64,000 bases of DNA. Origin: Methylocystis sp. (GTDB lineage: Bacteria > Pseudomonadota > Alphaproteobacteria > Rhizobiales > Beijerinckiaceae). The DNA lies in the NCBI RefSeq assembly GCF_051062815.1, contig NZ_JBPFDU010000074.1:13828-77827 (forward strand). The letters are read 5' to 3'. The first letter of the stretch is position 1; each line of letters opens with the position of its first letter. Both the position numbers and the translations under genes were made by a program. Of this stretch, positions 4,604-9,178 are shown in pieces. Under the pieces are notes generated by a model. The model was given only the letters and a program-made list of their open reading frames with translations, was not told where the DNA came from and did not search any database.

Positions 4604-7474
<2,871 letters not shown>

Positions 7475-7803: not shown

Positions 7804-7829
7804 CGGTGCTTGGAACCCGAGAGGCGGCG

Positions 7830-8213
7830 GTGGATCCAGTCTTCCAGCGGACAAGTCAGCGCGCGCGCATTTTTGCGGCGCTCGTCGCCTTCCTTATGCT
7901 CGTGCAGACCACGACTGCGGACGCAGGCGCCGTTGCGCTGGGAGAAGGCGTCGCTTTCGGAACAGTCTGCGCGCCGCAGGATGCGGTGAACGGCGAGCTG
8001 CCGCTTTTCCCGAATGAACGCCATCGCCATGGATTCTGTTGCGTTCTTCACAATGGCGCGTTGGACGCGCCTCCTTCCAAGCCAGTTGTTTCGATCGCTC
8101 TGATTTTTCCAGCTGAGGCTCATGCGTCTCCGCTGGAGACGTCCAGTCACGCGCCGCGCATCGAGCCAAAGCGCGCGCCACAATCGCCACGAGCTCCTCC
8201 CCGACAGGGCTGA
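7830..8213 (+). CDS. DUF2946/CruR-like leader protein with Cys/His motifs and C-terminal RAPP motif
   Basis: Hydrophobic N-terminal segment IFAALVAFLMLVQ, GTVC, HRHGFCCVLH, Pro/Ser-rich linker, ending QSPRAPPRQG-stop. This is the DUF2946 architecture as I recall it. ORF track start is 7806; GTG 7830 has the better SD. Confidence 0.7.
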   Translation: MDPVFQRTSQRARIFAALVAFLMLVQTTTADAGAVALGEGVAFGTVCAPQDAVNGELPLFPNERHRHGFCCVLHNGALDAPPSKPVVSIALIFPAEAHASPLETSSHAPRIEPKRAPQSPRAPPRQG

Positions 8214-8404
8214 AGTTTTTCTCGCGCTGAGATTCAACGCAGCCGCCATCATTACGATGGTGATGCGGCGAGAGCGCGTTCGCGAAAAATCTTTCAAACG
8301 GATCCTGCTGCCACCGCTGCGAGAGCAGACGCGGGGCCGCGCGCGCATCAAACCATTCGAAGGGGCGTTCATGCCCCACATAACCAGTATTTTGGAGATG
8401 ACTT

Positions 8405-9178
8405 ATGAGCATGACAAAAGCAGAGGCCCATGCCGCCGCCCGAAGCGCCGAACGAATTGTCGACACCAGACCCGTTCTTATCGGCGTTGCGGTCTTGATG
8501 TTCTTCGTGGCCTGCCTGCGCCTCTACGAACAACTCTTCGCCTGGAGCTTCGGTCTCGATTCCTTCTCGCCCGAGTTTCAGCTCTACTGGATGGGTCTGT
8601 TGCAGTTCGCGATTATGGCGTCGAGCTTTGCCGCGATCGCCCTTGTCGGCTTTCTGTGGCGCACGCGCGATCGCGATCTGGCGAATTTGGGAGCCTCAGC
8701 GGAAACGCGACGGCTCGTTTATCTCGTCCAGTGGCTGCTCGTTTTCTCGCTCGCCCTGTTTTGGGGCTTAAGCTTCTTTTCGGAGCAGACGGCTGTCTGG
8801 CACATGACCGCCGTGCGCGACACGGATTTCACGCCGAGCAATATCATCACCTTTTATATTGCATATCCGCTCTTTGCGATCATCGGGCTCGGCGCGTTCT
8901 TCTATGCGAAGACGCGTCTGCCGACTTTCGCGAAGGGATATTCTCTCGCCTTCGTGGTTCTTGTCGTTGGCGTCTTCATGACGATCCCGAATGTGGGATT
9001 CAATGAATGGGGTCACACGTTCTGGGCGATGGACGAAGGCTTTGCAGGTCCGCTGCACTGGGGCTTCGTCTTTTTCGGCTGGATGTCGCTGGCGACTTTC
9101 GGCGTCGTGCTGCTGATCCTTGGCCGTCTTCGCGAACTCCTCGGCGCGGATGCGCTAGAGCAGCTCTATCGACGTTAA
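8405..9178 (+). CDS. pmoC: Stand-alone particulate methane monooxygenase subunit C paralog (AmoC/PmoC family)
   Basis: LDSFSPEF, WHxTxVRDTDFTPS, PNVGFNEWGHTFW, PLHWGFVFFGW; GGAG SD at about 8394; no pmoA/pmoB adjacent. Confidence 0.95.
   Translation: MSMTKAEAHAAARSAERIVDTRPVLIGVAVLMFFVACLRLYEQLFAWSFGLDSFSPEFQLYWMGLLQFAIMASSFAAIALVGFLWRTRDRDLANLGASAETRRLVYLVQWLLVFSLALFWGLSFFSEQTAVWHMTAVRDTDFTPSNIITFYIAYPLFAIIGLGAFFYAKTRLPTFAKGYSLAFVVLVVGVFMTIPNVGFNEWGHTFWAMDEGFAGPLHWGFVFFGWMSLATFGVVLLILGRLRELLGADALEQLYRR

Follow-up and report, generated by a model that had tools for sequence, protein, structure and literature searches.

A 64,000-nucleotide stretch of a Methylocystis sp. assembly (GCF_051062815.1, contig NZ_JBPFDU010000074.1), referred to here as the window, contains an open reading frame (ORF) for a variant of PmoC, the C subunit of particulate methane monooxygenase (pMMO), and directly upstream on the same strand a small DUF2946/CruR/CutF-like leader ORF (Table 1). 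The variant lacks two of the three ligands of the copper site CuC and retains the complete ligand triad of the copper site CuD. The assembly (4.24 Mb, 100 contigs) represents a Methylocystis close to M. rosea. The active copper site of pMMO has been argued for two decades, and recent cryo-electron microscopy and spectroscopy favor CuD; yet practically every functional enzyme has retained the CuC ligands, for which an explanation is lacking.

Table 1 Coordinates of the leader-pmoC locus and of one neighboring gene (positions in the window)
Feature	Position	Strand	Remarks
Leader ORF	7830-8213	+	127 aa, start GTG 7830; DUF2946/CruR/CutF-like
Leader ORF, longest frame	7806-8213	+	135 aa, start GTG 7806
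Leader stretch predicted as an export signal or as a membrane segment at the N terminus, IFAALVAFLMLV	7869-7904	+	Preceded by basic residues; read from the translation
Putative metal-sensing motif, H-R-H-G-F-C-C-V-L-H	8022-8051	+	C78, C79 and H82 invariant, H75 nearly so (ortholog alignment)
Putative arrest motif, RAPP	8190-8201	+	Three codons before the stop codon (8211-8213)
Leader-pmoC spacer	8214-8404	+	191 nt; GC hairpin 8362-8377; Shine-Dalgarno GGAGA 8394-8398
Variant pmoC	8405-9178	+	Open frame of 257 codons
Codon starts, CuC region	T129 8789; H133 8801 (8801-8803); N146 8840; T149 8849	+
Codon starts, CuD triad	N200 9002; H204 9014; H218 9056	+
Aas-like fusion gene	4604-7474	-	956 aa; carrier-protein, AMP-binding acyl-activating and PlsC-type acyltransferase domains, of the lysophospholipid acylation type

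The product of the variant gene matched the Pfam family AmoC (PF04896) with an E value of 9e-91 and 304 bits (cut-off 26.7). It barely passed the generic NCBIfam model for methane/ammonia monooxygenase subunit C (TIGR03078, 281.8 bits, cut-off 280.6) and stayed under the cut-off of the equivalog model AmoC_BACT (NF041641, 303.1 bits, cut-off 319). Residues 1-251 aligned without a gap with residues 1-251 of PmoC from Methylocystis sp. M (3RFR_C), and gapless alignments were also obtained with the PmoC chains of Methylocystis sp. Rockwell (4PHZ, 7S4M) and Methylosinus trichosporium OB3b (3CHX). In the alignment with 3RFR_C, T129, H133, N146 and T149 of the variant stand opposite D129, H133, H146 and E149, and N200, H204 and H218 are identical. 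The canonical stretch FFTEQDGxWHMTVIRDTDFTPSHIIEFY corresponds to FFSEQTAVWHMTAVRDTDFTPSNIITFY in the window protein, and the canonical CuD stretch NVGLNEWGHTFW...PLHWG to NVGFNEWGHTFW...PLHWG. The numbering is offset by +27 relative to Methylococcus capsulatus Bath (query residues 11-235 correspond to 38-262 of 1YEW_C); therefore, T129/H133/N146 are equivalent to Asp156/His160/His173 of CuC and N200/H204/H218 to Asn227/His231/His245 of CuD, the ligand sets being those of the Bath enzyme (PMC12576850). Thus, the Asp and the second His of the CuC triad are replaced, the equivalent of His160 (H133) is kept, and the CuD triad is whole. This pattern, including the exchange of the Glu of IIEFY for Thr, had been proposed from the DNA sequence of the gene in the original prediction; the gapless alignment with the structurally characterized chains bears it out, and the codon coordinates given there are correct. 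An AlphaFold2 model of the variant (predicted local distance difference test score, pLDDT, 75.8) adopted the PmoC fold, with template modeling (TM) scores of 0.81/0.86 to 7S4M_C. Its pLDDT fell below 50 at residues 128-140 and 195-219, exactly at the metal sites, and the model therefore says nothing on site geometry.

A search of 5.8 billion proteins retrieved, at E ≤ 1e-20, 377 relatives. The 120 best cluster representatives were examined together with the paralogs from the genome itself: all proteins above ~57% identity to the query carried T(S/A)-H-N-T at the four CuC-region positions, and those below this value were mostly D-H-H-E. When 169 full-length C subunits of copper-dependent membrane monooxygenases (CuMMOs) were aligned, the variant pattern was found in 100, each the representative of a 90%-identity cluster; D-H-H plus N-H-H was the rule among the remainder. 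In a maximum-likelihood tree, all 100 carriers fell on one side of a single branch (Shimodaira-Hasegawa-like approximate likelihood ratio test, SH-aLRT, 99), forming the sister clade of the canonical alphaproteobacterial PmoC1/PmoC2 group, to which the genome's own canonical copies belong. T129 and N146 thus define a conserved clade: within it, T129 was conserved to 96%, N146 and T149 to 100% each, and the CuD residues N200, H204 and H218 to 95%, 99% and 100%. H133 was retained in 98% of the members despite the loss of both partner ligands. Ser occupied positions 129 and 200 in one subclade, and a few members had further changes at H133, N200 or H204. A single pattern for the variant CuC positions with an intact CuD triad recognized 46 of the 49 loci fetched, and recurrence in these and in the 100 cluster representatives puts the substitutions well past anything that chance or sequencing errors would produce.

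Eleven more switches relative to canonical PmoC are fixed in the clade (K86R, I118L, A122L, T131V, V136A, Y157F, A161G, L199F, E210D, L212G and V214A), most of them clustering around the CuC and CuD sites. The pocket residues R138 (100% in the clade), F150 (97%), E201, W202 and G203 are kept, and conservation of the C-terminal half with the active-site pocket (residues 123-236) nearly equals that seen in canonical PmoC. The segment W67-L74 (WTEIPLEL) does not vary in canonical PmoC but does so in the variant clade. In the 15 genomes holding both types, the pairwise ratio of nonsynonymous to synonymous substitution rates (dN/dS) was 0.175 for the variant versus 0.094 for canonical pmoC, and in these pairs dN of the variant was 6.7-fold that of the canonical gene; a set of 43 variant genes gave a median dN/dS of 0.166. 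Judged by these substitution patterns, the variant pmoC is under purifying selection that is looser overall than in the main subunit and very tight at the site residues. The variant frames are open at all 49 loci. The open 257-aa frame, the single clade, the invariance of N146/T149 and the dN/dS value support the earlier description of a full-length ORF with no sign of decay, and the variant is not private to one strain.

Thr and Asn cannot take over copper binding from a carboxylate and an imidazole, and a three-coordinate CuC therefore cannot form in the variant. In CuD-loaded pMMO, Asp156, Arg165 and His173 hold a water molecule beside CuD and Phe177 limits the space (PMC12576850). Since R138 and F150 are conserved and both Thr and Asn can form hydrogen bonds, the substitutions look like a removal of the CuC metal site that keeps the hydrogen-bond network in the second sphere of CuD. 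In native membranes of M. capsulatus and Methylocystis sp. Rockwell, CuD was occupied and CuC empty (PMC11725843), and simultaneous occupancy of the two sites has not been observed in pMMO. A PmoC that lacks CuC would steer scarce copper to CuD alone.

Nothing else at the locus is as informative as the leader, which the original prediction does not mention. Its start is probably the GTG at position 7830, which is preceded by GAGAGG, as several orthologs begin with MDP. A Leu/Ala/Val-rich hydrophobic core, as read from the alignment consensus, is conserved in all leader orthologs, and a Cys (GVxCAxQ) is semi-conserved. In the putative sensing motif, H-x-H precedes the invariant C-C-x-x-H; the pattern CC[IV][LMFV]H was found in 48 leaders. 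The C terminus reads (S)PR(A/G/P)PP and ends 1-8 residues before the stop codon, with R[AGP]PP present in all orthologs, and a pattern search detected a leader bearing it at 48 of the 49 loci. Between the motif His and the Arg of RAPP lie 45-47 residues in each of the 19 orthologs measured. The window leader matched the Pfam family DUF2946 (PF11162) over positions 5-117 of the 117-position profile with an E value of 0.002 and 19.3 bits, below the gathering threshold of 23.7. Thirteen of 14 leader orthologs matched DUF2946 at E ≤ 0.1 (best 3.5e-7), and for one ortholog a weak match had been precomputed.

The pairing of the two genes is strict. The leader lies directly upstream and on the same strand as the variant pmoC at all 19 loci compared, and the genus scan found it directly upstream of 47 of 48 variant copies, the exception being a contig break. 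It also precedes the variant in three deep-branching metagenome members of the clade. When 8 kb on either side were compared in 18 clade-spanning genomes, the leader was the only other ORF common to all, and no leader was detected within several kb of ~50 canonical pmoC copies from 17 near-complete genomes. One leader ORF, that of an M. echinoides-like genome (G153:C1:736290-736661, L044 region), contains an in-frame TGA; the variant pmoC downstream is intact. The spacer to pmoC measures 189-277 nt at 43 loci. In the window spacer, no intrinsic terminator was found on the + strand; divergent spacers, when aligned globally, yielded no consensus structure, and RNAalifold analysis of 20 close orthologous spacers (-10.8 kcal/mol, covariation term near zero) gave no well-supported fold. 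By analogy with CruR, the presence of such a leader before every copy examined strongly indicates a link of the variant pmoC to copper.

CruR of Bordetella pertussis (Bp2923) is an exported peptide with a CXXC motif, RAPP three residues from its end and a motif spacing of 45 residues; it is encoded by the first gene of an operon and followed by a spacer of 162 nt (PMC9426467). Its nascent chain senses copper, upon which the arrest is relieved and Rho-dependent termination occurs before the cargo, i.e. copper represses the downstream genes (PMC9426467). [quoted passage not shown] The DUF2946-type leader family has been described with Cys and/or His motifs, that of CutF being CXXXC. The leader of the variant pmoC shares with both the small size, the predicted export signal, the position as first gene of the unit, a putative Cys/His metal motif and a proline-rich motif near the stop codon. 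With CruR it further shares RAPP, the motif spacing (45-47 versus 45 residues) and a long spacer (189-277 versus 162 nt).

Related leaders are found elsewhere in the genus. In 8 of the 10 genomes bearing soluble methane monooxygenase (sMMO), a paralogous CruR-like leader (CCVLH...RAPP) heads genes for a membrane protein of the DUF1097 type, for a sigma-54 activator and for a paralog of GroEL, which are located directly before mmoX or convergent on it (e.g. L063 G171:C1:1475195-1482560, L061, L068). The sigma-54 activator and GroEL paralog next to mmoX are presumably mmoR and mmoG, the pair required for transcription of sMMO. Expression of sMMO is copper-repressed and occurs only at low copper. 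The paralogous leader before these mmoR/mmoG-like genes is a candidate for the mechanism of the sMMO copper switch. Another leader of the same kind in Methylocystis heads a PepSY_TM gene. A second DUF2946-like leader in the genome of the window (CCVAH...RAPP, contig C78:88594-88998, - strand) has orthologs, matching at ~44 bits, in many genomes of the genus, and no obvious copper gene was found directly downstream of it.

Because RAPP, the conserved spacing and the long spacer match the layout of CruR and not that of CutF, and because the paralogous leader heads regulator genes of the low-copper enzyme sMMO, we infer that the variant pmoC would be switched on at low copper; the argument is one of analogy and does not amount to proof.

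In Methylocystis sp. SC2, the ortholog (P0270, G162:C1:787720-788490, member of a 92%-identity cluster) is preceded by the same leader and lies on the 3.77-Mb chromosome. It is identified as pmoC2Gs (BN69_0727), since there are only two chromosomal monocistronic pmoC genes and the other (pmoC1Gs, BN69_0852) is identical to pmoC1. In global proteomics of cells from ordinary laboratory medium, PmoC2Gs was detected at 4.5e5-2.2e6 label-free quantification (LFQ) units versus ~2e8 for PmoC1 (about 0.2-1%), and at 75 mM ammonium it increased by log2 2.3 (~5-fold) together with plasmid-encoded multicopper oxidases (PMC9600857). The possibility raised with the original prediction that the protein is never expressed thus does not apply to this ortholog. 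Its low abundance fits repression by copper but does not show it. Variant-specific tryptic peptides of the window protein span FFSEQTAVWHMTAVR and DTDFTPSNIITFY. Induction of orphan pmoC genes has been reported for M. sumavensis at pH 5 and for M. bryophila (B1812_06380) at ambient O2; these genes could not be assigned to the variant clade.

We consider the locus a two-gene module of an exported leader of the DUF2946/CruR/CutF kind and a PmoC paralog with CuD as its only copper site. The nascent leader would sense copper by its His/Cys motif, which would alter ribosome arrest at the C-terminal RAPP, and the arrest state would set whether transcription or translation crosses the ~190-nt spacer into pmoC. 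The variant PmoC would then be a copper-gated alternative gamma subunit, made mainly under copper scarcity, that may join the PmoA and PmoB subunits encoded by the pmoCAB operons to give a pMMO whose PmoC holds copper at CuD only. This reading is favored over a role in copper homeostasis outside the enzyme, but we hold it tentatively and would put its chance at somewhat less than even. Against it, the leader motif, H-x-H-G-x-C-C-x-x-H, is neither the CXXC of CruR nor the CXXXC of CutF, and the window leader stays under the DUF2946 gathering threshold. No conserved RNA structure or obvious Rho utilization (rut) site was found in the spacer, so that coupling may run either through Rho termination or through unmasking of the ribosome-binding site; the direction of control could also be the reverse, as CutF-type leaders switch genes on with copper. 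In the protein, the variable helix 67-74 and the 6.7-fold higher dN could reflect a lost partner contact, and the near universality of the CuC ligands among working CuMMOs (169-sequence alignment) means that their loss may abolish activity. The variable segment and the higher dN also weigh for a variant acting outside pMMO as a stand-alone membrane protein of copper homeostasis (a sensor, a store, part of an importer or a loading factor), in which Asn/His/His would bind copper and the leader would tie the gene to copper status. The gene is monocistronic with the leader as its sole conserved neighbor, such leaders head copper-handling genes (TonB-dependent transporters, PepSY_TM, PCuAC, CopC; PMC9426467), including the PepSY_TM gene in Methylocystis, and PmoC paralogs have been suggested to act in sensing or regulation (PMC10171618, PMC7716213). 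The deep-branching clade members (L076, JGI 3300064369; L077/L078, ENA ERZ27250187/211) are situated next to a divergent multicopper oxidase gene or directly after a PepSY_TM gene, neighborhoods that hint at copper handling. That an orphan C subunit can depart from catalysis is shown by another orphan PmoC-like lineage (P0123; L101, GCA_900114285.1, FOSN01000015.1:63260-70075), which lacks the ligands of both CuC and CuD (G-I-N ... Y-I-H) as well as a leader and is encoded among genes for a TonB-dependent receptor, for CopC (two genes) and for PepSY_TM. However, residues 123-236 with R138, F150, E201 and the whole CuD loop are conserved more than simple copper binding seems to need, the protein matches a normal subunit in length and in the predicted arrangement of its helices, and PmoC by itself is not known to be stable or functional; a role outside the enzyme appears less probable than the subunit role.

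Reverse control, in which copper would induce the variant to adjust or protect pMMO or to buffer excess copper, would follow the logic of the Rhodobacter CutF-type DUF2946 leaders, which turn the downstream gene on upon copper binding. In the minimum-energy folds of some orthologs only (L053, L038, L049 and L050), the Shine-Dalgarno sequence pairs with the first bases after the leader stop codon, as in a design where stalling unmasks the ribosome-binding site, and the SC2 protein rose at high ammonium alongside the plasmid multicopper oxidases. This pairing is not conserved, however, the leader carries RAPP and not PPP, and spacers of 189-277 nt exceed the short-spacer limit of unmasking; together with the paralogous leader before regulators of the copper-repressed sMMO and the low protein abundance in ordinary laboratory medium, this renders reverse control improbable. 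That the variant is a redundant duplicate drifting to loss, with substitutions that serve no function, is scarcely credible. The faster amino-acid change than in canonical pmoC, the absence of the gene from ~40% of the species of the genus and the few members with extra changes at H133, N200 or H204 would suit such a course, but it is already contradicted by the conservation observed: open frames at all 49 loci, dN/dS of 0.175, a deep clade with N146/T149 invariant and CuD at 95-100%, a dedicated co-conserved leader and a detected protein. The interpretation in the original prediction is supported in part: its copper-related options, a copper-sparing subunit or a non-catalytic copper-binding or assembly factor, gain weight, and nothing speaks for its third option, an altered substrate.

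If the alternative, copper-gated pMMO subunit is the right reading, one leader type might run the whole low-copper methane-oxidation program of Methylocystis. One copy would gate the CuD-only PmoC, giving a pMMO that needs less copper and is unable to misplace it in CuC, and the paralogous copy would gate mmoR/mmoG as the sMMO "copper switch". We regard this extension as speculative and more doubtful than probable.

Within the genus, 48 variant-type matches, called by identity and adjacency, were found in 46 of 78 species-level genomes of Methylocystis. Named carriers are M. rosea, M. hirsuta, M. suflitae, M. silviterrae, M. parvus, M. echinoides and M. bryophila; strains SC2, H62, MJC1 and Sn-Cys carry it as well. 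In two other genera of the family (6 loci from 5 sampled genomes), the best matches were canonical D/H/E proteins. A plasmid origin was rejected, the pmoC copies on Methylocystis plasmids being at most 53% identical and placed outside the variant clade. The idea that sMMO substitutes for the variant pmoC was also rejected, as 8 of the 10 sMMO-bearing genomes carry the variant too.

Neither pmoA nor pmoB was found near the variant pmoC of the window; the flanks comprise the Aas-like fusion gene upstream of the leader, which is syntenic among close relatives only, a GNAT gene and a HemW-like gene. Elsewhere, the genome contains two canonical-type orphan pmoC genes (C58:4031-4855, - strand; C9:15152-15928, + strand), a frameshifted pmoC fragment (C49:11041-11605, - strand) and a cluster in pxmABC order (C4:55571-58420, - strand). 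The assembly yielded no pmoA or pmoB of a main pMMO, a pxmA-type gene being the only one found; most likely, the repeated main pmoCAB operons were lost in assembly or binning.

Compared with canonical PmoC (3RFR_C, 7S4M_C), the variant belongs to the same family (PF04896), has the same length, ~55% identity without gaps and the same fold (TM 0.81-0.86), and keeps CuD and most pocket residues. It differs by the replacement of the CuC Asp by Thr, of the second His by Asn and of the IIEFY Glu by Thr, by the 11 further switches, by its location outside the pmoCAB operon behind a leader ORF, and by its faster evolution. The gene as such is already known and annotated as a "singleton pmoC": pmoC2Gs of SC2 is the ortholog of the window gene, and the "monocistronic" or "singleton" pmoC of Methylocystis is given in the literature as being of unknown function. 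The term "singleton pmoC" mixes the variant type with canonical-type orphans (pmoC1Gs and the plasmid copies), which keep D/H/H. Extra lone C-subunit copies outside CAB operons also include amoC3 of Nitrosomonas europaea, pmoC3 of M. capsulatus Bath and phage-encoded pmoC, which are believed to act as modulators of the enzyme in certain situations; they are not known to have lost the metal ligands or to be preceded by a DUF2946 leader. In the searchable literature, which does not cover subscription journals, no description was found of a PmoC paralog devoid of CuC ligands, of its clade or of its leader, nor of DUF2946/CruR/CutF in combination with pmoC.

Evolution has long kept a PmoC in which the CuC ligands have been removed by changes that look hydrogen-bond-preserving, with CuD left intact, and culturable strains such as SC2, M. 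rosea and M. parvus carry it. This natural variant makes the question of CuC versus CuD experimentally tractable, with a copper shift suggested by the leader as inducer; if a CuD-only pMMO were active, CuC would be shown to be dispensable for catalysis in vivo. The leader before the mmoR/mmoG-like genes is likewise relevant to the long-sought mechanism of the copper switch in methanotrophs. AmoC/PmoC is not among the cargo families named in the main text of the CruR (PMC9426467) and CutF papers. Leaders of the CruR/CutF type are associated with a transporter, chaperone or oxidase, whereas the cargo at the locus described here is a monooxygenase subunit, and regulation of this type would thereby be extended to a core enzyme of the methane cycle.

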